From positions 158,164,001 through 158,228,000 of the forward strand of contig CM059431.1 of the NCBI GenBank assembly GCA_030390025.1: DNA of 64,000 nucleotides, read 5' to 3'. This DNA comes from Squalus acanthias (taxonomy: Eukaryota). Shown piece by piece: positions 7,165 through 60,829 of this stretch; the stretch's first letter is position 1, and every line of letters starts with the position of its first letter. The notes beneath the pieces are model-generated. The model was not told the DNA's origin. It saw only the letters and a list, made by a program, of their open reading frames with translations, and ran no database searches. Made by a program: the position numbers and the translations under genes.

Positions 7165-10100
7165 AGAACTAATAGTAAGATTGGGCTGAGTCAACATGGA
7201 TTTATGAAAGGGAAATCCTGTTTAACAAACCTATTGGAGTTCTTTGAGGATGTAAGTAATGTAATAGACAAAGGAGAACCGGTAGATATGGGGTATTAGA
7301 ATTTTCAAAAGAACTTCGATAAGGTCCCACACAAGAGTTTGGTGAACAAAATTAGGGCACATGGAATTGGGGGTAATATACTAGCATGGATAGAGATTGG
7401 TTAACAGACAGAAAACAAAGAGTATGGATAAACGGGTCTTTTTCAGGATGGCAGGCTGTGACTAGTGGGATACCGCAAGAATCGGTGCTTGGGCCCCAGC
7501 TATTCACAATCTTTATCAATGATTAGGATGAAGGGACTAAATGTAACATTTCCAAATTTGCTGACGACTCAAAGCTAGGTGGCAGTGTCAGTTGTGAAGA
7601 GGCTGTGAAGAGGCTTCAAGGGGATCTCTACAGGCTCAGTGAGTGGGCGAGAACATGGCAGTTGGAATATAATGTGGATAAATGTGAGGTTATCCACTTT
7701 GGTAGAAAAAACAGAAATGCAGAGTATTTCCTAAATGGTGAAAGATTGGGAAATGCAGATGCTCAAAGGGTACTGGGTGTCCTTGTACATGAATCATTGA
7801 AACTGAATGTGCAGTTGCAGCAAGCCATTAGGAAGGCAAATGGTATGCTGTCGTTCATTACAAATGAATGTGTGTACAGGAGTAAAGAGGTCTGACTCCA
7901 ATTATATTAGGCCTTGGTGAGAGCCCACCTGGAGTACAATTTTGCTATGCTTACTTAAGGAAGGATATACTTGCCATAGATGGAGTGCAACAAAGGTTCA
8001 CGAGATTGATTCCTGGGATGGCGGGAATGTCGTATGAAAAGAGATTCAGTAAACTAGTCCTTTATTCTCTTGAATTCAGAAGAATGAGAGGGGATCTCAT
8101 TGAAGCATACAACATTATTACAGGCTTGATAGGGAATTTGCTGGGAGAATGTTTCCCACGGCTGGGGAGTCTAGAACCAGGGGCCACAGCCTAAGGATAA
8201 AGGGTAGGCCATTCAGGACTGAGATGAGAAGAAATTTCTTCACACAGAGGATGGTGAACCTTTGGAATTATCTGCCCCAGAGGGCAGTTTAGGCTCAGTC
8301 ATTGATTATATTCAAAACAGAAGTCGATAGATTTCTGACTAGTAAAGCCATCAAGGGATATGGCGATACATAGATACATAGATACATAGAAGATAGGAGC
8401 AGGAGAAGGCCATCCGGCCCTTCGAGCCTGCTCCGCCATTTAATGAGATCATGGCTGATCCTCCAATTCAGTATCCCGTCCCCGCCTTCTCTCCATAACC
8501 CTTAACCCCTTTTGCCTGTAGAAATATATCTAATTCCCTCTTAAATATATTTAATGAGCTGGCGTACACTGCCCTCTGTGGCAATGAGTTCCACAGGTTC
8601 ACCACCCTCTGAGTGAAGAAATTCCCCCTCATTTCTGTCCTAAATGGTTTAGCCCTTATCCTTAAATTATGTCCTCTAGTTCTGTTCTCACCCGCCAAGG
8701 GAAACATTCCTTCTGCATCTAGTCTGTCTAGACCTGTCAGAATTTTATACACTTCTATGAGGTCCCCTCTCAATCTTCTAAACTCCAGTGTGTACATCCC
8801 TAAATTACATAGTCTCTCCTCATAGGTCAATCCCGCCATTGCTGGTATCAGCCTGGTGAATCGCCGCTGCACCCCCTCCATGGCAAGAACATCTTTCCTC
8901 AGATGAGGCGACCAAAATTGTACACAGTACTCGAGGTGTGGTCTCACCAGTGCCCTGTACAGCTGCAGCAAGGTATCCCTGTTCCTGTATTCCAACCCTT
9001 TTGCTATGAAGGCCAGCATACCGTTTGCCTTCTTGAACGCCTGTTGCACCTGCATGCTCGCCTTCAGTGACTGGTGTACAAGAACACCCAGGTCTCTCTG
9101 TACTTCCCCCTCTCCCAATTTATTGCCATTTAAATAATAATTTGCCCTCCCGTTCCTGCACCCAAGGTGGATAACTTCGCACTTGTCCACATTATAGTGC
9201 ATCTGCCATTTATCCGCCCAATCACCCAGTCTTTCCAAATCGCTCTGGAGCTTCCTGGTCTCCTCCTCTGAGCCCACCCCCCCTCCTAGTTTAGTGTCGT
9301 CTGCAAATTTGGAAATGCTGCATCCGACTCCCTGATCCAGGTCATTAATGTAAATTGTGAACAGCTGGGGATCCAGGACAGATCCCTGTGGTACCCCACT
9401 TGTTACTGCCTGCCATTCAGAAAATGAGCCGTTTATTCCAACTCTCTGTTTTCTATCTGACAGCCAGTTCTCTATCCACGTCAATACTTTCCCCTTTATC
9501 CCATGAGCTTCAATTTTCCATGCTAATCTTTTATGTGGGACCTTATCGAAGGCCTTTTGGAAGTCCAGGTACACCACATCTACTGGCTCTCCCCCATCTA
9601 TTTTACCAGTTACTCCCTCAAAAAATTCCAATAGATTAGTCAAGCACGATTTACCCTTTGTAAATCCATGTTGACTCTGTCATATCCTGTCCCCATTTGC
9701 TAAGTGCTCCGCTATTTCATCCTTAATGATGGACTCCAGCATTTTGCCCACAACTGATGTAAAGCTTACAGGTCTGTAATTACCTGCTTTTTCCCTACCC
9801 ACCTTTTTGAATAGTGGGGTAACGTTAGCTACCCTCCAATCCATGGGCACTGTTCCCGAGTCTAATGAATTCTGAAAAATCATACTTAGTGCATCCGCTA
9901 TCTCTAGGGCCACCTCCTTCAGTACCCTAGGATGCATGTTATCAGGCCCTGGGGATTTGTCCGCCTTCAATCCCTTTAGCTTCCTTAACACCATATCCTT
10001 AGAGATATTGATTTGCGTCAGTTCCTCCTTTGCCAATGTCCCTATTTTTCCCGATATCCCAGGGAGGTTTTTTGTGTCTTCCTTCGTAAAGACTGACCCA

Positions 10101-11008
10101 AAGTATGCATTTAGTTGGTCTGCCATTTCCTTATTTCCCGTTATATATTCCCCCGTATCTGACTGCAATGGACCAACTTTGGTTTTCACCAGTCTTTTCC
10201 TCTTGATATACTTATAAAAGCTTTTGGAGTTAGTTTTTATATTTTCCGCCAGCTTGCTTTCGTAAGCTATTTTGCCCCTCTTGATTAAGCCCTTTGTCCT
10301 CCTTTGCTCTATCTTAAACTGTTCCCAATCTTCCGCTCTGGCGCTTTTTTTGGCTATTTTATACGCCCTATCTTTGGATTTTATGCTGTCTCTAATTTCC
10401 CCTGTTATCCACGGTTGAGTCACCTTTTTAGATTTCCTTTTATGCCAGATTGGTATAAACAATTTTTGCAATTTTGTCATTCTATCTTTAAATGCTTGCC
10501 ATTGTTTATCTACCTCCAGTCCTCCCAGGAACGTTGTCCAATCAGACCTACTCAGTTCCCGTCTAATGGCATCATAATTCCCCTTGTTTAAATTCAGGAC
10601 CTTAGTCTCTGAGACAATTTCTTCGCTCTCCATTTCGAGCGAGAAATCGATCATGTTATGATCGCTCTGACCCAAGGGTCCCCGTACAACAAGATTACTA
10701 ATTAGTCCCTTCTCATTGCACAGTACCCAGTCCAATATAGCCTGTTCCCGAGTTGGTTCCTCGACATATTGATCCAGATAACCATCCCTTAAACACTCAA
10801 GGAACTCCTCCTCCTCATTATTTTTACTGATTAGGCTAGTCCAATCTATATGTAAGTTAAAGTCACCTATGATGACAGCTGTGCTCTTAGGGCGGGTGAA
10901 TGGAGTTGAGGCAGAAGATCAGCCATGATCTCATTGAATGTCGGAGCATGTTCAAAAGGCCGAATGGCCTACTCCTGCTCCTATTTCTTATATATTTATG
11001 TTCTTATA
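7165..11008 (+). mobile_element. Older CR1 RT/3' fragment split by the young insertion at 8365-10889
   Basis: QHGFMKGKSCLTNL to the RT C-terminus at 7165-8364; the 3' UTR resumes at 10889 and ends in a tatgttct tail. Confidence 0.85.
8365..10889 (-). mobile_element. Young 5'-truncated CR1 LINE, near-identical to 56004-58524
   Basis: ORFs 9680-10735 and 8468-9643 are separated by one GGA>TGA stop; FADD RT motif; (TATGTATC)n tail; constant 47635 bp offset to the full-length copy. Confidence 0.95.
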
Positions 11009-29870: not shown

Positions 29871-32800
29871 GTCCGGAGCGAAAAGAGCCACGGTACAGTG
29901 AGTATTTAAACTCACTTTTGCGTGCTTTTTTCAGAGGCTTACCAATCTCGCAGACCGGCGGCCGTGTTCCAGAACCACTTCACGATTCAAAAAGTGACGC
30001 GGGCAAAAGGAAGCAGCTGATTGGCTGAGTACGGCCAGGTGAGTATTTATACAACTCTATAGTTTGACAGTTAAGGTTAATAATGTATAAAGTTTTGAAG
30101 ATCTTAATTTGGTGGTTATAGTTTTGAAGGTCTCAGTGTAGTGTAATTTGTGGTATTGATTTGCTTTAATTTAATTTAAATTAATTAAAGAATAAGTAAT
30201 GGCAGCACAGGTCGTCCCCGTGGCATGCTCCTCCTGCATTATGTTGGAAATCAGGGACACTTCCTGTGTCCCTGACGACCATGTGTGCGGGAAGTGTATG
30301 GAGCTGCAGCGACTGGCAGACCGCATTGCAGCGCTGGAGTTGCGAATCGATACATACTGGAGCATTCGCGATGCTGAGGACGTCGGGGATATCATGTTTA
30401 ATGAGTTGGGCACACCCCAGGTAAAGGCTGCACAGGCAGGAAGAGAATGGGTGACCGCCAGGCAGAGTAGTAGGCGCAGGCAGTTAGTGCAGTTGTCCCC
30501 GGTGGCCATCCCCCTCTTAAACAGATATGCCACTTTGGATATTGTTGAGAGGATGGCTTAACGGGGGAAGGCAGCAGCAACCAACATCCTGGCACCATGG
30601 GTGGATCTGCTGCACAGGACAGGAGGAAAAAGAGCGGGAGATCTATAGTGATAGGGGATTCTATTGTAAGGAGAAGAGATAGACGTTTCTGCGGCCACAA
30701 ACGAGACTCAAGAATGGTATGTTGCCTCACTGTTGCAAGGGTCAAGGATGTCTCAGAGCGGCTGCAGGGCATTCTGGAGTGGGTGGTTGAACATCCAGTT
30801 GTCGTGGTGCATATAGGTACCAAGGATATAGGTAAAAAGCAGGATGCGGTCCAAAAAGTTGAATATAGGGAGTTAGGAGGTAAATTAAAAAATATGACCT
30901 CAAAGGTAGTAATCTCAGGATTGCTACCAGTTCCACGTACTCGTCAGAGTAGAAATAGAAGGATATTTCAGATGAATACGTGGCTAGAAGAATGTTGCAA
31001 TGGGGAGGGATTCAAATTCCTTGGACATTGAAACCGGTTCTGGGGAAGGTGGGACCAGTACAAAGTGGACGGTTTGAACGTGGGCAGGACCGGGACCGAT
31101 GTGCGCGTGGGAGTGTTTGCTAGTGCTGTTGGGGAGGGTATAAACTAAAATGGCAGGGGGTTGGGAACCTGTGCCTGGAGAGAGAGGAAGGGGTAGCAAG
31201 GATAGAAGCAAAAGACAGGAAGGAGAAAAGAAAAAGTGGAAGTCAGAGAAATCAAGGGTTTAAATCAAACGTGAACACAATAAATAATAATTCTAAAAGC
31301 TCTAAGAGTGTTAAAAAACAAGCCTGAAGGCTTTGTGTCTTAATGCGAGGAGCATTCGTAATAAGTTGGATGACATAGCTGTGCAAATAGATGTAAACGT
31401 ATATGATATAATTGGGATTACAGAGACATGGCTCCAGGGTGACCAAGGCTGGGAATTGAACATCCAGGGTTATTCAATATTCAGGAAAGACAGGCAAAAA
31501 GGAAAAGGAGGTGGAGTAGCATTGCTGGTTAAAGAGGAGATTAACACAATATTAAGGAAGGATATTAGCTCAGCTCTGATGATGTGGAATCTGTATGGGT
31601 AGAGCTGAGAAATACCAAGGGGCAGAAAACGTTAGTGGGAGTTGTATGCAGACTCCCAAACAGTAATGCTGTGGTTGGGGATGGCATTAAACGGAAAATT
31701 AGAGATGCGTACAATAAGGGGACAGCAGTTATCATGTGTGACTTTAATCTACATATAGATTGGGCTAACCAAATTAGTAACAATACCGTGGAGGAGGAAT
31801 TCCTAGAGAATATATGGGATGGTGTCCTGGACCAATATGTCGAGGAACAAACTAGAGATCAGGCCATCTTCGACTGGGTATTATGTAATGAGAAAGGATT
31901 AATTAGCAATCTTGTTGTGCGAGGCCCCTTGCGGAGGAGCGATCATAATATGATAAAATTCTTCATTAAGATGGAGAGTGAAGTAGTAGTTGACACAGAG
32001 ACGTGGGTACTGAATTTGAATGAAGGAAACTACGATGGTATGAGGCGCGAGTTGGCTAGGATGGATTGGGGAATGTTACTTAAATGGTTGACGTTGGATA
32101 GGCAATGGCAAACATTTAAAGATCGCAAGGATGAACTACAGAATTTGTTCATCCCTGCTCGGCATAAAAATAAAACAAAAAAGGTGACTCAACCGTGGCT
32201 AACAAGGGAAATTAGGGAAAGCATAAGCTCACAGGAGAGGACATATAAATTGGCCATAAAACGCAGCAAACCTGACGATTGGGAGCAGTTTAGGATTCAG
32301 CAAAGGAGGACAAAGGGATTAAATAAGAGGGGGAAAATGGAGTATGAAAGTAAGCTTGCGGAGAACATAAAAATTGACTGTAAAAGCTTCCATAGATATG
32401 TGAAGAGAAAACGATTGGTGAAGTCAAGCGTAGGTCTCTTGCAGTCAGAATCAGGGGAAATTATAATGGGGAACAAAGAAATGGCAGACCTATTAAATAC
32501 ATACTTTGGTTCTGTCTTTACAAAGGAGGACAGAAATAAACTCCCAGCGATGTCGGTGAACATAGTATTTGATGAGTGGGAGGAACTGAATGAAATCAGT
32601 ATTTGTAGGGAAATGGTGTTTGGGAAATTGACGGGACTGAAGGGCGATAAATCCCCAGGACCTGATAATTTACATCCTAGGGTAATTATAGAAGTGGCCC
32701 TTGAAATAGAAATGCATTGCTGTTCATGTTCCAAAATTCCATAGACTCTGGAACAGTTCCCATGGATTGGAGGTTAGCTAATGTAACCCCACTATTTAAA

Positions 32801-43224: not shown

Positions 43225-45034
43225 TTTTTGCCTACACTACTTGTAGTGCTTTATGTTAGAGGTAGATATTTAATTTCAGCAACCTTAACTTAATCTCGAT
43301 CAAGTATGTAGTCAGGAAACTACACCATAAAGTAATTTACCGAATTACAAATTTAATTAACTTTAACAAAATAAATCAAGGTCATATCGGGATAGCAGTG
43401 CAGGCGGTGTGCCGCAACTGCAGCATGTGGGAGTTTTTGGTGAGCATTGTTGTCCCGGACAACCACGTTTGTAGTAAGTGCCTGCATCTTGAGGAACGTC
43501 AGCTCAGATTTTTTGAGCTGGAGTCTGAGGTGATGACATTGCGGGGCATCAGGGATGGGGAGAGTTACCTGGACATTTTGATCCAGGAGGCAGTCACACC
43601 CCTTAGGTTAGGTAGTGCTACAGGTCTGGTTAGTGGTCAAGGACAGGAGGGTGTGACTGCCACTCAGGCAGGTAATGTCACCCCAGGTGTAGTGCTCGAG
43701 GAACCTTAGCCTTTGTCCTTGTTCAACAGGTATGAGGTTCTTGCTGCCTGCGTGGATTAGGGAAAAGCCTGCCGGATGAATGAACAGGCTGACCATGTTT
43801 CCATGGTGTAGGATGCCATTCAGTGGGGAGAGTGAAAGGGAATGCAGTTGTGGTAGGGGACATTTTAGTCATGGGGATAAATACTGTTCTCTGCAGCCAG
43901 GACCGTGAGTTCCGCAGGTTGCATTGCCTGCCCGGTGCCAGGGCAAAAGGCATTTCCTCACGGCTGGAGAAGAAGTTGGAGTGGCAAGGGAAGGATCCAG
44001 TTGTCGTGGTCCACGTACGAACCAACGACATAGGTAGAACTAGGAATGATGTTCTGCTGAGGGAGTTTGAGGAGGTAGGATACAAATTAAAAAGCAGAAC
44101 CTTGAAGGTAATAATCTCGAGGTTGTTAACTGAGCCACGCGCAAATTGACAGAGGGACAAACAGATTAGACGTTTAAATGCGTGGCTCAAAGAATGGTGT
44201 GGAAGGAAGGGGTTTCAGTTTATAGGGCACTGGCACCAGCACTGGGGAACGAGGGAGCTGTTCCGTTGGGGCAGGCTCCAATTAATCCGGGCTGGGAACA
44301 GTGTCCTGGTGAACCGAATAACTAGCGCAGTAGACAAGGCTTTAAACTAATGCAGTGGTGGTGGGAGGATTCAGGAAACAGTAAATTTAAAAGCAGCGAG
44401 AGAAATGTCAAGCCTCTCGAGCAGAGTAGAGTTTTGGGTAAAAATAATCAGAGTGGATCAGGAAGGGACAGAGAGAACAACAAAGGTAATAAGGCATCAC
44501 TGACTAAGGTGACACCAGGGAAGAGATAAATAAGTCAAAGCTAAAGGCACGATTTCTGAATGCGTGTAGCATTTGCAACAAAATAGAGGAAATAATAGCG
44601 CAGATAGAAAAGAACAGGTTTGATCTAATAGCCATAATGGAGACGGGGTTGCAAAGTGGCCATGGTTAGGGACTAAATATTCCAGGATATATAATTTTTA
44701 GAAGGGATAGGAAAAATGGAGAAGGAGGAGGGGTTGTCCTGATAATAAAGAATGGGATAAAGACAGCAGAGAGAAAGGAACTTAGCTCCGAAAATCAAGA
44801 AGTAGGATCAGTTTGGGTAGGGCTAAGAAACAGCAAGGGGCAGAAAACATTAGAGGGAGTTGTTTACAGCTCCCCAAACAATAGTTGTAATGTAGGGCGG
44901 ATTATAAATCAGGAAATTAGAGGTGCATGTAGCAAGGGTAATACAGTAATCATGGGGGACTTTAATCTTCATTGAGACGGGGCAAACCAAATTTGCAGTA
45001 ATAGTGTGGAGGACAAATTCATGTAATGTATGCA

Positions 45035-48000
45035 AGGTAAGGCCTCAGAGCGTCGGCGGGAGGTTCAGCGGCGGCAGTTTGCCTGTAAAAGGCTCCAGAG
45101 ACCAGGTAAGGCCTCAGAGCGTCGGCGGGAGTTTCAGCGGCGGCAGTGGGCCTATAAAAGGCTCCAGAGATCAGGTAAGGCGTACCAGTCTCCGAACTCG
45201 GAGGGAAAAATTATCGAAGTTTGACGTCACCAAAAAACAGGTAAGTGATTGGTTGGTGAGTATTCCTCCCTTTTTAAGCTTAAATTCTGTGGTGTTAAAT
45301 TTCTAGGGTCTCTGTGGTGTAGTGGGGACAGTTGGTAAATAAAGCGCCCTATAGTAAATCTGTAACTGGGGTATTGAATACATTTTTAATTTAATTAAAG
45401 GAGTAGTTCATGGCAGGTGAGATCAGCCCCGTGTTATAGAAACATAGAAACATAGAATCTTGGAGCAGGAGTAGGCCATTCGGCCCGTCGAGCCTGCTCC
45501 ACCATTCAATACGATCATGGCTGATCATCCAAATCCAGTACCCTGTCCCCTGTTTTAATCCCCACAGTACACATATCCCACCCTACCCCCGTAACCCCAC
45601 GTATTTAATTCCCCCGAACATATCCCATCCTATCCCCATAACCCCACATATTTAATCCCCCCCTAACACTAAGGGTCAATTTATCATAGCCAAATCAACC
45701 TAACCCGCACATTTTTGGACTGTGGGAGGAAACCGGAGCACCCGGAGGAAACCCACGCAGACACGGGGAGAATGTGCAAACTCCACACAGACAGTCACCA
45801 GTTATGCTCCTCTTGCTCCATGTGGGAATTCAGGGACGCTGCCAGTGTCCCTGGGGACCAGGTGTACGAGAAATGCATCCAGCTGCAGCTACTTGTAGAC
45901 CGCATTGCGGCGCTCGAGCTGCGGGTGGATGAGTTTTGGAGTATACGCGATGCTGAGAGGGTCGTGGATAGCACGTTTAACGAGTTGGTCACGCTGCAGG
46001 GTAGGGCTGCACAGATAGAAGGGAAATGGGTGACCATCAGGCAGAACAGCAGAGGCAGGCAGGGAGTACAGGGGACCCCTGCGGTCATCCCCCTTTTAAA
46101 CAGGTATACCGATTTGGATACTGTTGAGGGGGATGACTCACCAGGGAAGAACGGTAGCAGCCAACTTCCTGGCACCAGGGTTGCTTCTGCTGCTCAGAAA
46201 GGGAGGAAAAAGAGTGGGAAAGCAATAGTGGTAGGGGATTCTATCGTAAGGGGAACAGGTAGGCGTTTCTGTGGCCGTAAAAGTAACTCGAGGATGGTTT
46301 GTTGCCTCCCTGGGGCCAGGGTCGTGGATGTCACTGAGCGGCTACAGGGCATTCTTAAGGGGGAGGGGCTGGAGGCAGAGGTCGTGGTTCACATTGGGAA
46401 CAACTACATAGGTAGGAATGGGGATGAGGTCCTGCATTAAGAATTTAGGGAGCTAGGTAGCAGAGTAAAGAGCATGACCTCAAAGGTTGTAATCTCTGGA
46501 TTACTCCCAGTGCCACGTGCTAGTGAGTATAGGAATAGGAGGATAGAACAGATGAATGCGTGGCTGAAGAGTTGGTGCAGGAGGGAGGGTTTTAGTTTCC
46601 TGGATCACTACACCTGCTTCTGGGGAAGGTGGGACTTGTACAAGTCGGACGGTTTGCACCTGAACCAGAGCGGGACAAGTATCCTTGCGGAGAGGTTTGC
46701 TAGCACTGTTGGTGGGGGGATTAAACTAACTTGGCAGAGGGATGGGATACAGGGTGGAGCTACAATAGGGGGTGATGTACAGTCAAATATAGAGAAAAAA
46801 ACAAGTCAGCTTGGAAGACAGGGCAAACATGTAAGAGCAAGGCTGGAAGGCATCTATTTTAATGCAAGGAGTCTAGCGAATAAGGTGGATGAACTGAAGG
46901 TGTTGATAAACACATGGGAGTATGATATTGTTGCTATCACGGAGACATGGTTGAGGGAGGGGCAAGACTGGCAGCTCAATATTCCGGGGTACAGAATCTT
47001 CAGGCGAGACAGAGGGGGAGTTATAAGAGGAGGGGGTGTCGCAATATTAATTAAGGAATCAATTACTGCCAAAAGGAGGGATGATATATTAGCAGGATAC
47101 TCCAATGAGGCTATATGGGTGAAGCTTAAAAACAAAAAGGGGGCAAGCACTTTGCTGGGAGCGTACTATAGGCCTCCAAACAGTCAGGGGGAGATAGAGG
47201 AACAGATATGTAGGCAAATCTCAGAGAAATGTGCAAATAATAGTGTAATAATAATGGGGGATTTCAACTTCCCCAATATTAACTGGGATAGTCAGAGTGC
47301 GAAAGGCTTAGAGGGTTCAAAATTCTTAAAGTGCATCCAGGAGAGCTTTTTGAGCCAGCATGTAGAAAGTCCTACAAGAGAGGGTGCGGTACTGGACCTA
47401 ATTCTAGTGAATGTGGCCGGCCAAGTGGAAGAAGTGCTAGTAGGTGAGCACTTTGGTGACAGTGACCATAATACGGTTAGATTTAAGGTGGTCATGGAAA
47501 AGGACAGGGATGGGCCGGAAATAAAGGTTCTAAATTGGGGGAAGGCCGATTTTAATAGGATAAGGCAGGATTTGGCCAACAGGGACTGGGATCAGCTGCT
47601 TGTAGGAAAATCCGCATCGGAGCAATGGGATTCTTTCAGAAGGGAGATTGAGATCATACAATGGCAGCACGTTCCCGTAAAGGTCAAGGGTGGTTCCAAA
47701 AACCGCAGGGAACCTTGGATTTCAGGGGATATACGAGAATGGATCAGGAAAAAAAGGAGGGCTTTTGGCAGATACAAAATGCTAAAGACGGAGGAAGCCA
47801 TAGAGGAGTACAAAAAGTGCAGGGGGATACTTAAAAAAGAAATTAGGAGATCAAGGAGGGGCCATGAAATAACACTGGCGAACAAAATAAAGAAAAATAC
47901 TAAGATGTTTTATAAGTATATTAAGGGTAACAGGATAACTACGGAAAAAATAGGGCCCATTAGGGACAAAAGTGGCAATCAGTGTGTGGAGCCGGAAGAT

Positions 48001-54070: not shown

Positions 54071-56102
54071 GATGTTGATATTTGTTTCTCCGCAAATGTT
54101 AGACTTGCCCTTCTTGCAAAGCAAAGATCGCAGGAACCCAAGTGCCCGGAGACACCTGCGAGTCTCAGGTACTGCCCAGGCCGGTTGTATCGACTGATAT
54201 TATTGAATTGTACACGCAATGACCTGTGGGCTCTGGTCTGCGGTACTGGTGAAAATTCGTCCATCGATCATAAAAGGTAAGTGATATCTGCAGTCCCCTC
54301 CGTCTAATGTAATGGCATTGTAAGGGAATCGCGTTAGTACTGTTGTAATCAATTCAAATTTTCATTTAGCCGGTTATAATGGATAAAAGACGGCCTGTTT
54401 TACAATTTTTTAAAATTTTATCGGACACGAAGATGAAACGCGTGTGTAGCTAAAGGCAGGTATGGATCAAGCAAAGTGCTTATACAGAAACAGGCGACTA
54501 GCCTCTCATGAATCGCTTTTGGATGAACAAACCTTGAAATTGTATTGATAATACGCCTGTAATCCGGTATTTGAAGCGAAATTCGCAAAGTTCCTTTTGA
54601 AAATGTATCATTATCATTTTATGTTACTGCAGGCAATAATCATTATAATCAATATAATGAGAGATAGATTGCCTTAACAGGGCTATTATCCAGAGCACTT
54701 AACAGTGGATGGGAGTTGGAGGGAGAAATATTTAGTCAAATCAACGAAAGGAGTAATATACATAAAACAATATTCATGGGAGATTTCAACTAACCCCTCC
54801 CCAATAAACTGGCGAAGATAGGTGGGGAGAAAGGAAAATGGAATAGAGATTTTACAGTATGTACAGGATTCCTTTCGAACCTGACAAAGGAGGAATTACG
54901 GCAGGATCACGGTTTTATCGTTCCAGGGATGTGGGCATCGCTGGGAAGGCCAACATTTATTACCCATTCCTAATTGCTCTTGAGAAGGTGGTGGTGACCC
55001 GCTTCTTGAGCCGCTGCAGTCCGTGTGGTAAAGCAACTCGCACAGTGCTGTTCGGGAGAGAGTTCCAGGATTTTGACAAATCGACTATGAAGGAACGACG
55101 ATATATTTCCAAGTCAGGATGGTGTGTAACGTGGAGGGAACTTGGAGGTGATTGTGTTCGTATGCGCCTGCTGCCCTTGTCCTTCTAGGTGGTAGAGTTC
55201 GTGGTTTCGGGAGGTGCTGTCGAAGAAGCCTTGACGAGTTGCTGCAGTGCATAGTGTAGATGGTACACACTGAAGCCATGATGTGCCAGTAGTGGAGGGA
55301 TTTAAATTTTAAGGGAGTGGATGTGATGCCAAACAAGCGGGCTGCTTTGTTCTGGATGTTGTTGGAGCTGCACTCGTCCAGCCAAGTGGAGAATATTCCA
55401 TCACACTCCTGACTTGTGCTTTTGTAGATGGAGGAGAGGCTTTGGGGAGTCAGGAGGTGAGACACTCGTCGCAGGATACATAGCCTCTGACCTGCTCTTG
55501 TAGCCACAGTATTTATGTGTCTTGTCAAGTTAAGTTTCTGGTCAGTGGTGACCCCCAGGATGTTGATTTTGGGGGATTCAGCGATTGTAATGCCGCTGAT
55601 TGTCAAAGGGCGGTGTTTAGACGCTCTGTTTTTGGAGATAGTCATTGTCTGGCACTTGTGTGGTGTGAATGTTACCTGCCACTTATCAGCCCAAGCCTAA
55701 TTGTTGTCCAGGACTTGCTGCATGCGGGCATAGACTGCTTCATTTTCTGAAGAGTTGCGAATGGAGCTAAACACTGTGCATTCAGCGAACACCCCCACAT
55801 CTGACCTTATTATGGAGGTTAGTTCATTAATGAAGCAACTGAAGATGGTTGGGCCTAGGACACTGCCCTGAGAATCGATGTCATAGGGCTGAGATGGTTG
55901 ACCTCCAAAAACCACAACCATCTTCCTTTGTGCTCGGCATGACTCCAGCCAGTGGAGAGTTTTTCCACTGATTCCCATTGACTTCAATTTACTCGGACTC
56001 CTTGATACATACATAGATACATAGAAGATAGGAGCAGGAGTAGGCCATCCGGCCCTTCGAGCCTGCTCCGCCATTTAATGAGATCATGGCTGATCCTTCA
56101 AT

Positions 56103-58907
56103 TCAGTATCCCGTCCCCGCCTTCTCTCCGTAACCCTTAACCCCTTTTGCCTGTAGAAATATATCTAATTCCCTCTTAAATATATTTAATGAGCTGGCGT
56201 ACACTGCCCTCTGTGGCAATGAGTTCCACAGGTTCACCACTCTCTGAGTGAAGAAATTCCCCCTCATTTCTGTCCTAAATGGTTTAGCCCTTATCCTTAA
56301 ATTATGTCCTCTAGTTCTGTTCTCACCCGCCAAGGGAAACATTCCTTCTGCATCTAATCTGTCTAGACCTGTCAGAATTTTATACACTTCTATGAGGTCC
56401 CCTCTCAATCTTCTAAACTCCAGTGTGTACATCCCTAAACTACATAGTCTCTCCTCATAGGTCAATCCCGCCATTCCTGGTATCAGCCTGGTGAATCGCC
56501 GCTGCACCCCCTCCATGGCAAGAACATCTTTCCTCAGATGAGGCGACCAAAACTGTACACAGTACTCGAGGTGTGGTCTCACCAGTGCCCTGTACAGCTG
56601 CAGCAAGGTATCCCTGTTCCTGTATTCCAACCCTTTTGCTATGAAGGCCAGCATACCGTTTGCCTTCTTGACCGCCTGTTGCACCTGCATGCTCGCCTTC
56701 AGTGACTGGTGTACAAGAACACCCAGGTCTCTCTGTACTTCCCCCTCTCCCAATTTATTGCCATTTAAATAATAATTTGCCCTCCCGTTCCTGCACCCAA
56801 GGTGGATAACTTCGCACTTGTCCACATTATAGTGCATCTGCCATTTATCCGCCCAATCACCCAGTCTGTCCAAATCGCTCTGGAGCTTCCTGGTCTCCTC
56901 CTCTGAGCCCACCCCCCCTCCTAGTTTAGTGTCGTCTGCAAATTTGGAAATGCTGCATTCGACTCCCTGATCCAGGTCATTAATATAAATTGTGAACAGC
57001 TGGGGACCCAGGACAGATCCCTGTGGTACCCCACTTGTTACTGCCTGCCATTCAGAAAATGAGCCGTTTATTCCAACTCTCTGTTTTCTATCTGACAGCC
57101 AGTTCTCTATCCACGTCAATACTTTCCCCTTTATCCCATGAGCTTCAATTTTCCATGCTAATCTTTTATGTGGGACCTTATCGAAGGCCTTTTGGAAGTC
57201 CAGGTACACCACATCTACTGGCTCTCCCCCATCTATTTTACCAGTTACTCCCTCAAAAAATTCCAATAGATTAGTCAAGCACGATTTACCCTTTGTAAAT
57301 CCATGTTGACTCTGTCCTATCCTGTCCCCATTTGCTAAGTGCTCGGCTATTTCATCCTTAATGATGGACTCCAGCATTTTGCCCACAACTGATGTAAGGC
57401 TTACAGGTCTGTAATTACCTGCTTTTTCCCTACCCCCCTTTTTGAATAGTGGGGTAACGTTAGCTACCCTCCAATCCATGGGCACTGTTCCCGAGTCTAA
57501 TGAATTCTGAAAAATCATGCTTAGTGCATCCGCTATCTCTAGGGCCACCTCCTTCAGTACCCTAGGATGCATGTTATCAGGCCCTGGGGATTTGTCCGCC
57601 TTCAATCCCTTTAGCTTCCTTAACACCATATCCTTAGAGATATTGATTTGCGTCAGTTCCTCCTTTGCCAATGTCCCTATTTTTCCCGATATCCCAGGGA
57701 GGTTTTTTGTGTCTTCCTTCGTAAAGACTGACCCAAAGTATGCATTTAGTTGGTCTGCCATTTCCTTATTTCCCATTATATATTCCCCCGTATCTGACTG
57801 CAATGGACCAACTTTGGTTTTCACCAGTCTTTTCCTCTTGATATACTTATAAAAGCTTTTGGAGTTAGTTTTTATATTTTCCGCCAGCTTGCTTTCGTAA
57901 GCTATTTTGCCCTTCTTGATTAAGCCCTTTGCCCTCCTTTGCTCTATCTTAAACTGTTCCCAATCTTCTGCTCTGGCGCGTTTTTTGGCTATTTTATACG
58001 CCCTATCTTTGGATTTTATGCTGTCTCTAATTTCCCCTGTTATCCACGGTTGAGTCACCTTTTTAGATTTCCTTTTATGCCAGATTGGTATAAACAATTT
58101 TTGCAATTTTGTCATTCTATCTTTAAATGCTTGCCATTGTTTATCTACCTCCAGTCCTCCCAGGAACGTTGTCCAATCAGACCTACTCAGTTCCCGTCTA
58201 ATGGCATCATAATTCCCCTTGTTTAAATTCAGGACCTGAGTCTCTGAGTCAATTTCTTCGCTCTCCATTTCGAGTGAGAAATCGATCATGTTATGATCGC
58301 TCTGACCCAAGGGTCCCCGTACAACAAGATTACTAATTAGTCCCTTCTCATTGCACAGTACCCAGTCCAATATAGCCTGTTCCCGAGTTGGTTCCTCGAC
58401 ATATTGATCCAGATAACCATCCCTTAAACACTCAAGGAATTCCTCCTCCTCATTATTTTTACTGATTAGGCTAGTCCAATCTATATGTAAGTTAAAGTCA
58501 CCTATGATGACAGCTGTGCTCTTATTGCACGCTTCTCTAATTTCCCTCGTGATGCCCTCCCCAACCTCTATTTTACTATTTGGAGGCCTATATACCACTC
58601 CTATTAATGTTTTTCGCCCCTCGCTATTTCTTAGCTCCACCCATATAGATTCTGTATTAACTGAGTTAATATCCTTCCTTTCAATTGCATTTATCCCCTC
58701 TTTTACCAGCAATGCTACCCCTCCTCCCTTTCTTTTTTGTCGATCCTTCCTAAATACTGAATACCCCTGTATGTTAAGCTCCCAGCCCTGCTCACCCTGC
58801 AACCATGTTTCCGTAATCCCAATTAGATCATAATTATTAACCTCTATTTCCACAGCTAATTCATCTACCTTGTTCCTGATGCTTCTCGCATTAAGGTATA
58901 AAACCAT
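56103..58907 (-). CDS. CR1 ORF2p: APE endonuclease + reverse transcriptase (934 aa from the first Met; frame open upstream to the ORF1 end)
   Basis: LNARS, ITETW, YRPP, GDFN, SDHN; DFQKAFD, GVPQGSVLGP, FADD. Confidence 0.97.
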   Translation of the reverse strand: MVLYLNARSIRNKVDELAVEIEVNNYDLIGITETWLQGEQGWELNIQGYSVFRKDRQKRKGGGVALLVKEGINAIERKDINSVNTESIWVELRNSEGRKTLIGVVYRPPNSKIEVGEGITREIREACNKSTAVIIGDFNLHIDWTSLISKNNEEEEFLECLRDGYLDQYVEEPTREQAILDWVLCNEKGLISNLVVRGPLGQSDHNMIDFSLEMESEEIDSETQVLNLNKGNYDAIRRELSRSDWTTFLGGLEVDKQWQAFKDRMTKLQKLFIPIWHKRKSKKVTQPWITGEIRDSIKSKDRAYKIAKKRARAEDWEQFKIEQRRAKGLIKKGKIAYESKLAENIKTNSKSFYKYIKRKRLVKTKVGPLQSDTGEYIMGNKEMADQLNAYFGSVFTKEDTKNLPGISGKIGTLAKEELTQINISKDMVLRKLKGLKADKSPGPDNMHPRVLKEVALEIADALSMIFQNSLDSGTVPMDWRVANVTPLFKKGGREKAGNYRPVSLTSVVGKMLESIIKDEIAEHLANGDRIGQSQHGFTKGKSCLTNLLEFFEGVTGKIDGGEPVDVVYLDFQKAFDKVPHKRLAWKIEAHGIKGKVLTWIENWLSDRKQRVGINGSFSEWQAVTSGVPQGSVLGPQLFTIYINDLDQGVECSISKFADDTKLGGGVGSEEETRKLQSDLDRLGDWADKWQMHYNVDKCEVIHLGCRNGRANYYLNGNKLGEGEVQRDLGVLVHQSLKASMQVQQAVKKANGMLAFIAKGLEYRNRDTLLQLYRALVRPHLEYCVQFWSPHLRKDVLAMEGVQRRFTRLIPGMAGLTYEERLCSLGMYTLEFRRLRGDLIEVYKILTGLDRLDAEGMFPLAGENRTRGHNLRIRAKPFRTEMRGNFFTQRVVNLWNSLPQRAVYASSLNIFKRELDIFLQAKGVKGYGEKAGTGY

Positions 58908-59044
58908 CAGGCTTTTTTTATGCTCACATTTTTTATGAATTAGTTTGGCCCTTTGTTTTTTGTTCCTCTCCTTTTTACCATTTATTTCTGTCTGCCTTTC
59001 ACTTTCCTCTATTTCACTACATGGGTTTCTAGCCCCCTGCCATA

Positions 59045-59992
59045 CTAGTTTAAATGCTCCCGAACTGCTTTATCAAAATTTACCCCGAGAACCTCAGTTC
59101 CATCTTTGCACAGGTGTAGACCGTCCCTTTTGTATAGGTCACACCTACCACAAAACTGGTCCCAATGCCTCAAAAATTTAAAACCCTCCCTCTTACACCA
59201 CTGCTGAAGCCACGTATTTAGCCTAACTATCCTGTTCTCTGTACTCTTACTAGCACGTGGCACTGGTAGTAATCCAGAGATTACTACCTTCGAGGTCCTA
59301 CTTTTTAGCTTGGCTCCTAACTCCCTAAATTCTACTTGTAGGACCTCTTCCCTTTTTTTAGCTACGTCGTTGGTACCAACATGTATCACGACAACTGGCT
59401 GTTCCCCCTCCCCCTCCAGAATGTTCTGCACCCGCGCCGAGACATCCTTGACCCTTGCACCAGGGAGGCAAATTACCATCCTGGAGTCTCGGTCGCGACC
59501 ACAGAAACTCCTATCTATTCCCCTTACAATCGAATCCCCTATTACTATAGCCCTGCCACTCTTTTTCCCTCCCTTCTTTGCAACAGAGCCAGTCATGGTG
59601 CCATGAGCCTGGCTGCTGGTGCCTTCCCCCGCTGAGTCATCCCCCCCGACAACAGCACCTAAGGCGGTGAACCTGTTGCTGAGGGAGACAACCCCAGGGG
59701 ATTCCTGCACTACCTTCCTGCCCTTGCTCTGCCTTTTGGTCACCCATGTACTATCTACTCTGGCCTTAACCTGCGGTGTGACCAACTCACTAAATGTGCT
59801 ATTCACAACCCTCTCAGAATCGTGGATGCTCCAAAGTGAGTCCATCCGCAGCTCAAGGGCCGTCATGCGGTCCCACATGAGCTGCAGCTGGACACACTTC
59901 CCGCACACATGGTTGTCAGGGACACAGGAAGCGTCCATGATTTCCCACATGTTACAGGAGGAGCATGACACAGGTCCGAGCTCTACTGCCAT
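59045..59992 (-). CDS. CR1 ORF1p: zinc finger, coiled coil, SGNH esterase (315 aa)
   Basis: CSSC..CGKC, VIGDSIVR, HVGTND, DGLH motifs. Confidence 0.93.
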   Translation of the reverse strand: MAVELGPVSCSSCNMWEIMDASCVPDNHVCGKCVQLQLMWDRMTALELRMDSLWSIHDSERVVNSTFSELVTPQVKARVDSTWVTKRQSKGRKVVQESPGVVSLSNRFTALGAVVGGDDSAGEGTSSQAHGTMTGSVAKKGGKKSGRAIVIGDSIVRGIDRSFCGRDRDSRMVICLPGARVKDVSARVQNILEGEGEQPVVVIHVGTNDVAKKREEVLQVEFRELGAKLKSRTSKVVISGLLPVPRASKSTENRIVRLNTWLQQWCKREGFKFLRHWDQFCGRCDLYKRDGLHLCKDGTEVLGVNFDKAVREHLN

Positions 59993-60829
59993 GACTTAAC
60001 CCTTATATTACTTATTAATTTTCTAGTTTTAGTTTATTTATTGACTTTTGTTTTCCCGAAGCTTACTTAGACCAATGTATACTGTACTCCTCTTATTCCT
60101 TTTTAAACTAACCAGATCGCACTAGTTTTAGTTGTACTTTCTAGGAAGGTTTGAGGAAAGTACTTACCAGTTAGTCTTACCTCCCTGGTCTTTCGCTGAC
60201 TTCCCGGTCTTGTGTCCCCTTGGTCCTACGCCGACTTCCCGCTCCTCCCGGTTCCTGCTCTGCTGAAAAGAAACTGAGACCAAAAAATTTGTGACCTCTG
60301 TTTTTAGACTACTCTGTAGGAACTCGGGTTTAAGCCACCACCCTCCTTAAATGCCGCTCCAACCAGGTCCGCTCCTCCTTCCCCGCTGCCGACCGCTCTG
60401 TGGGAGAAAAAGAAAGAAAGGCTCCTCCTCCGCCGCTGTCGACGCTGGTCTGAGGCCTACCCGATGCGGGCAAATGCTGTCTTGATGTCAAGGGCAGTCA
60501 CTCTCACCTCACCTCTGGAATTCAGCTCTTTTGGCCATGTTTAACTTAGGCTGCAATTAGGTCTGCAGCCGTGTGATCCTGGCGGATCCCAAACTGAGCA
60601 TCGGTGAGCAGATTATTGGTTTGTAAGTGCCGCTTGATTGCACTGTCGACATCACCTTACATCAGTTTGTTGATAATTTAGAGTAGACAGATGGTGCGTT
60701 AATTGGCCGGCTTAAATTTGTCGCTCTTTGTGTGGACAGGACATAGCTGTGCAGTTTTACACATTGCGGTTAGATTCCAGTGTTGTAGCTGTACTGGAAC
60801 AGCCTAGCTAGAGGCGCGGCTTGTTCTGG

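Follow-up and report, generated by a model that had tools for sequence, protein, structure and literature searches.

Vertebrate canonical CR1 long interspersed nuclear elements (LINEs) encode an esterase in their first open reading frame (ORF1), encode an apurinic-endonuclease-type (APE) domain and a reverse transcriptase (RT) in their second (ORF2), and have no poly-A tail; the CR1 group accounts for 22-34% of elasmobranch genomes (PMC13343379). Translation of the second frame of a bicistronic LINE RNA has been called unclear (PMC3708506), and the worked examples use reinitiation. Here we describe an element with the CR1 layout in a 64,000-nucleotide stretch of Squalus acanthias DNA (GenBank assembly GCA_030390025.1, contig CM059431.1, positions 158,164,001 to 158,228,000 of the forward strand), hereafter the window, from whose first letter positions are counted. 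Its ORF1 ends on U UUA AAC followed directly by a stop codon, and we propose, with a probability of roughly 0.78, that in esterase-type CR1 LINEs ORF2 is produced through programmed -1 ribosomal frameshifting at this heptamer, which would yield a predicted ORF1-ORF2 fusion.

Described systems resemble this junction in different respects. SART1, with its UAAUG coupling, and L1, with reinitiation at ORF2, share with CR1 a bicistronic RNA and scarce ORF2 product, but both release a free ORF2 protein and need no slippery heptamer; most CR1 lineages examined here have no AUG at the stop, TAATG being found in one subfamily. Frameshifting at -1 has a precedent among LINEs: the Dictyostelium elements TRE5-A and TRE3-A, which are APE-type and lack long terminal repeats, are stated to require it for ORF2 (PMC5911963). 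They differ from CR1 in having a zinc finger in ORF2, ending in an oligo(A) tail and targeting tRNA genes, and the passage gives neither a shift site nor an assay. For Paramecium LINEs a +1 shift or reinitiation has been suggested (PMC5405496). ZfL2-1-type L2 elements have the same ORF1 esterase (PMC3905857), but their DGxHP-type relatives, assigned to this kind by similarity, lack both the LN end and the heptamer. Viral -1 signals (coronavirus U_UUA_AAC and the arterivirus G_UU variant) use the same heptamers in the same phase, with a polymerase frame in -1 (PMC3542737, PMC5009743); unlike them, the CR1 site has no stem-loop or pseudoknot that could be found 5-9 nt downstream, and an adjoining stop codon and a G-run are present instead. 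Judged by its letters, the CR1 site would work like a viral -1 shift site, but testing for a local stimulatory structure gave a negative result.

What is added here is the proposed recoding site: the main text of PMC13343379 contains none of the terms frameshift, overlap, translation, start codon, methionine or slippery. A CR1 frameshift site was not found in the literature searched, the reach of which stopped short of the early chicken and turtle CR1 papers and of Kapitonov and Jurka 2003; priority is therefore uncertain, as the early chicken CR1 reports, those on turtle PsCR1, or Kapitonov and Jurka 2003 could already have recorded the overlap and proposed a shift. CR1 is not mentioned in the first 300,000 of the 449,034 characters of PMC5009743, is described without frameshifting in the first 300,000 characters of PMC11835228, and the accessible part of PMC5006619 held nothing relevant. 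Were the proposal correct, a dominant LINE of birds, reptiles and sharks would set its ORF1:ORF2 ratio as retroviruses do, the esterase would be tethered to the endonuclease and RT, and CR1 ORF2 frames without a usable start would be accounted for, with corrections to annotation and cloning. The parts of the element are as follows.

59048..59054, minus strand: slippery heptamer T TTA AAC in X XXY YYZ phase (from sequence and conservation)
59045..59047, minus strand: ORF1 stop TAG, adjoining the heptamer (relatives use TAA, TAG or TGA)
58899..59048, minus strand: linker without AUG, read in -1 between the proposed shift site and the YLNARS motif of the endonuclease; 52 codons long when counted from the heptamer, 23-76 in relatives
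59033..59037, minus strand: run of five G (G5) lying 11-15 nt downstream of the heptamer, a candidate stimulator conserved in lineages
58905..58907, minus strand: private ATG, AGG in the family and not a family start (29 AGG versus 1 ATG)
59045..59992, minus strand: ORF1, 315 aa (Pfam PF13472, E 1.4e-11; AlphaFold model)
56103..59069, minus strand: frame of ORF2, spanning 988 codons between stops, with APE endonuclease and reverse transcriptase domains (Pfam)
59993..60462, minus strand: 5' untranslated region (UTR), without upstream ATG (by comparison with sister copies)
56007..60462, minus strand: the near full-length young CR1 LINE (boundaries from sequence, approximate within a few bases)

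The 3' end of ORF1 reads GAG CAT TTA AAC TAG, with ORF2 in the -1 frame. The initial annotation had described an ORF1 ending CAT TTA AAC TAG with the heptamer at 59054-59048 and a -1 frame open into ORF2; direct reading of the phase bore this out, the heptamer being correctly placed as X_XXY_YYZ and the -1 frame running uninterrupted from 59069 to the stop at 56103 (988 codons, reading FKLVWQGARNP...KKSLMVLYLNARS). Its description of U UUA AAC as a recognised slippery site likewise agrees with the X_XXY_YYZ definition (PMC3542737) and with the inclusion of this heptamer among the shiftiest (PMC5009743).

We propose that a minority of ribosomes would slip here, tRNA-Leu (UUA) and tRNA-Asn (AAC) re-pairing in tandem to UUU AAA; such ribosomes would skip the stop and resume at CUA, producing the junction ..EHLN-LVWQGAR within a predicted fusion of 315 + 981 = 1296 aa, while most would terminate, so that free ORF1 would predominate. 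The anatomy was read directly from the DNA; from it we infer the slip and its rate, the fusion and the stimulator. The transframe L-K or F-K peptides foreseen by the initial annotation are not those that this scheme predicts: under the model in PMC3542737, tandem slippage would give ..REH-L-N-L-VWQG, an L-K product would require slippage in the P site only, and F-K would not be expected.

Conservation of the junction was examined in copies collected from this genome with queries that favoured intact LN ends. The searches returned 140 junction regions, repeats of the same copy included (109 distinct), and 133 of these were placed in 11 usable groups which have different linkers and are related to each other; seven were omitted as interrupted or unclustered. 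Per copy, the heptamer was TTTAAAC in 125, GTTAAAC in three, TTTAAAT in two, TTTAAAA in one, TTTAAGC in one and unreadable in one. The group majority was TTA in 11 of 11, preceded by T in 11 of 11 (codons CAT, GGT, GCT or GAT, encoding H, G, A or D); ten of the 11 groups had AAC as the majority, the other being a two-copy group that was split. As a background in the same ORF1 tails, TTA accounted for 10 of 95 leucine codons (10.5%), AAC for 18 of 49 asparagine codons, and T for 77 of 274 four-fold sites. The codon after the ORF1 stop varied freely (GTA, ACT, ATT, GCT, AAG and others), and the stop itself was TAA in eight, TAG in seven and TGA in one of 16 lineages represented by copies with an intact heptamer. 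Synonymous conservation in subfamily alignments, on which the initial annotation had staked its proposal, was thus observed, with pattern-keeping variants among which G GGA AAC (see below) is predicted from protein only. Both among subfamilies and among animal groups, conservation of the heptamer at synonymous sites exceeds chance.

Such a motif might also be kept without any shift, by a protein-level constraint on the C-terminal Leu-Asn, by some other nucleic-acid signal, or because CTAG serves as a splice acceptor. Alignment A1 shows no variation at L314 or N315, and the last predicted helix of ORF1 (residues 296-314 in the AlphaFold model) stops at L314, as a protein constraint might have it; however, the heptamer leucine codon is fixed, whereas other conserved leucine columns of ORF1 use four to six codons, and the leucine-to-glycine change seen among relatives is not conservative. 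Splicing was rejected: the AG of an acceptor is not conserved, because the stop is TAA, TAG or TGA among the 16 lineages, and no joint at the junction was seen in contigs of four runs, a weak observation since three of the runs are only guessed to be RNA. We regard explanations of this kind as highly improbable, and the least likely of those considered.

The reading frame was consistent with frameshifting as well. The endonuclease frame was -1 in 100 of the 133 copies; it was the commonest frame in nine of the 11 groups, tied in one and in the minority in one. This phase was maintained across linkers of 23-76 codons, and eight group majorities contained no stops in -1, compared with 3-7 and 2-12 in the other two frames.

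Metagenome loci, found through an esterase motif about 400 nt upstream of the junction, extended the comparison to other animals. Among 52 matches, 20 element-like loci were examined, and 15 of these had an esterase end: seven were readable and CR1-type, three were cut before the site, and five were L2-type. TTA AAC was present in all seven readable CR1-type junctions, with T preceding it in six and G in L155. The junctions read TGT TTA AAC TAG in L142; TCG TTA AAC TAG in L155 (heptamer G UUA AAC, a tolerated form of the slippery site according to PMC3542737); TGT or TTT, then TTA AAC TAA, in L160 and L172; and GCT TTA AAC TGA in L143 and L158, with L159 having the same heptamer followed by TGC. 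ORF2 was in -1 in five of six loci, and in L155 and L172 it was in a single piece. L143, L158 and L159 end in xALN, like named sauropsid proteins, while the remaining CR1-type loci appear to resemble unnamed, probably invertebrate, proteins. The slippery site occurred in none of the five L2-type loci, which served as a control, and ORF2 of one of them, L154, was in frame 0.

Protein tails provided a further comparison. The esterase end was complete in 163 of 253 ORF1 homologues, and N was the last residue in 95, representing 87 distinct tails. The penultimate residue of these tails was L in 72 and G in 10; in 11 of the 15 non-L tails it was G or K, both of which have XXA codons (background 0.22, p 4e-5). 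A residue without a T-ending codon preceded LN in only one of 72 tails, compared with 64 of 288 at the four preceding positions, whereas such a residue (Q) preceded GN in eight of 10 (Fisher p 1e-8 versus LN, the proteins being kin and not independent). The co-change of xLN and QGN fits T TTA AAC in the one and a predicted G GGA AAC in the other, the latter deduced from proteins; both heptamers are listed among the shiftiest (PMC5009743). The GN proteins share one 20-row clade, together with an FLN, an SKN and seven non-N ends (quick tree, 98 of 142 rows), and hence represent one or few events rather than independent cases. As a control, one of 35 L2-type esterase ORF1s (DGxHP) ended in N. Broad alignments A2-A4 were too diverse for a locus search. 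Four ORF1 relatives, P0212, P0226, P0220 and P0178, end LNC, LNWI, GFLGRV and RFFR, respectively; on their protein ends, these could have slippery sites at least one codon before the stop, for example U UUU UUA.

The methionine in SLMVLYLNARS, which the initial annotation had read in the -1 frame, is indeed in that frame but is private to the window copy (ATG at 58907): all 29 sister copies have AGG, and the Arg codon is also at full depth in contigs of two other runs, X1 and X5 (58906 A>C). This ATG was accordingly discarded as the ORF2 start, and that directly after the stop (59043) is out of frame. The first in-frame methionine of the family is codon 256, after the PF03372 endonuclease and its SDH motif (five of five sisters checked). 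Since 29 of 29 sisters lack the AUG and the first methionine follows the endonuclease, the family has no usable ORF2 AUG. Upstream of the heptamer no AUG was found in the -1 frame, which closes within 1-7 codons in 14 of 16 lineages, and initiation there was rejected on that account. A conserved AUG for ORF2, which the initial annotation had named as contrary evidence, was sought across sisters and groups and none was conserved; ORF2 lies in -1, is open from the site and lacks a start of its own, although a linker methionine occurs in some lineages.

Termination followed by reinitiation at or near the ORF1 stop, mostly on non-AUG codons and giving free ORF2 as in SART1 or L1, is the foremost alternative. 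SART1 uses an overlapped UAAUG, and L1 ORF2 works with any sense codon in place of its AUG (PMC3708506, PMC5972666, PMC1965478); in group 2 a TAATG lies in the -1 frame, group 15 has a methionine at codon 4, and reinitiation also predicts a linker open from the stop region. A SART1-type AUG overlapping the stop is, however, not conserved, the window family having TAGTA and a methionine standing at codon 4 in two of 11 groups only. Reinitiation would moreover offer no reason for TTA and AAC being invariant, for the preceding T or for the LN/QGN co-change; it does not need a fixed -1 phase, and the codon following the stop varies freely. We consider it unlikely. Both routes could operate, with a low-rate shift but most working ORF2 arising from lineage-specific AUGs or reinitiation, or with the fusion cleaved within the linker, leaving free ORF2 as the sole active form. 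Linker methionine codons in several groups and in L155, L160 and L172, and the poor conservation of the linker sequence, would accord with such a mixture, but the youngest group (99.8% identity) has its first AUG at codon 256, and groups 5 and 6 and L143/L158 mostly lack one; we give this combination very little credence. Together, the heptamer conserved at synonymous sites, the absence of a conserved AUG and the co-variation of protein ends according to X XXY YYZ argue for frameshifting.

Several observations weigh against this interpretation. The representatives of the 16-lineage table were chosen for an intact heptamer, the unbiased counts being those of the 133-copy and metagenome sets. 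In 33 of the 133 copies the endonuclease frame was not -1 (13 in frame 0, 19 in +1, one unread), and group 8 had one of three copies in -1; the off-frame copies belong mostly to older groups, in which they would fit decay. Two of the three other, decayed junctions in the window deviate from the heptamer by one base. Some groups have an in-frame linker methionine, and group 2 has TAATG. Among DGxHL-type tails, 24 of 110 end in a residue other than N, and DNA of QGN-type elements was found neither in viral contigs nor in a genome-contig scan, whose 25 matches included no LINE. The second element of a canonical signal, a stem-loop or pseudoknot 5-9 nt downstream, was not detected. Pairing of the G-run with a distant partner, as in luteovirus signals, was no stronger than in shuffled sequence (-21.2 versus a mean of -21.4), the best partner being an arm of the 3' UTR stem, and across 19 elements partners were scattered, with no fixed long-range one.

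The downstream hairpin suggested by the initial annotation can be drawn, but at -7.8 kcal/mol (z -0.40 to -0.90) it was not significant, and across the 16 lineages mean z was -0.35 (50 nt) and -0.21 (90 nt), with one of 16 below -2, using a tool that does not model pseudoknots. A two-tier G-quadruplex was rejected as a general stimulator; it was predicted in nine of 16 lineages but not in the window family. A site about 420 nt upstream (CLPGA codons) was among the top four partners of the G-run in eight of 19 elements, at modest energies. G itself was present at the five positions 11-15 nt downstream in 16, 16, 13, 15 and 12 of the 16 lineages, and these include synonymous third-codon positions when read in -1. 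The fixed features are therefore the stop directly after the heptamer and the G-run, not local structure. In arteriviruses, a short motif at about that distance works through a bound protein, and by analogy one might speculate on a similar bound-protein stimulator for CR1. The most speculative step of the scheme is that the pause would come from the stop codon and G-run rather than from a local hairpin. More broadly, CR1, which ranks among the most abundant vertebrate retrotransposon groups, and its invertebrate-type relatives might make a Gag-Pol-like fusion by an ancient -1 shift, stimulated by the adjacent stop and a G5 run at fixed distance through a bound protein or the mRNA channel of the ribosome; we offer this tentatively, and think it rather more likely to fail than to hold in full. 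Retention of the heptamer in sharks, reptiles and invertebrate-type elements alike, in the absence of local structure, would suggest an unusual stimulator.

The element itself has the hallmarks of an esterase-type CR1. ORF1 consists of a Cys-rich N-terminus, a long helix, a disordered linker and an SGNH/GDSL esterase, ending ..REHLN-stop; ORF2 contains APE and RT domains (PF03372 at aa 60-259, PF14529, and PF00078 at E 1.5e-31); short tandem repeats without poly-A form the 3' end, and many copies are 5'-truncated. The nearest ORF1 homologues are named from sharks and rays, and wider ones from sharks, rays, alligator, turtles, lizards and a snake. In an ORF1 tree, shark-like and sauropsid LN proteins were grouped separately from L2-type proteins. 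First-look searches gave 746 candidates for the young family, of which 29 fetched sister copies were 99.7-99.9% identical, and 57,000-79,000 candidates for ORF1-like sequence in the 3.7 Gb genome.

The copy lies within an older, different LINE ORF2 fragment (60660-60463 and 56003-54950, minus strand), and its flanks match over merely three bases, ATC. Its 3' end carries short TATG/TCTATG repeats and a stem-loop at 56070-56030 (minus strand; arms GGAGCAGG...CCTGCTCC), which is likely the RT recognition site; several subfamilies have the same stem and others a different one. The 5' UTR lacks a C-rich tract of about 48 nt at 60311-60310 (minus strand) that was present in four of four sisters checked, and with this gap and the private ATG the copy is slightly atypical of its family.

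Three GTAAG splice-donor-like sites are present in the 5' UTR (60180, 60167 and 60066, minus strand), and a CR1 5' UTR fragment repeated in tandem at 45030-45250 (plus strand) contains similar CAGGTAAG motifs. Elsewhere in the window, positions 8468-10918 (minus strand) hold a 5'-truncated member of the same young family, its ORF2 protein 98% identical with one stop. A second, older CR1 subfamily is represented at 44341-44347 (plus strand) by GCT TTA AAC TAA TG, in which TAATG overlaps the stop in the -1 frame; TTTAAAC was found in 19 of 20 copies of this subfamily. The decayed junctions at 31139-31145 (T ATA AAC) and 46720-46726 (A TTA AAC), both on the plus strand, are one base off each and resemble groups 6 and 1, in both of which the majority is T TTA AAC. 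Finally, protein P0012 is a shark/ray-type CR1 ORF1 that carries the NCBI label Pseudomonas aeruginosa SGNH hydrolase, probably through host contamination.

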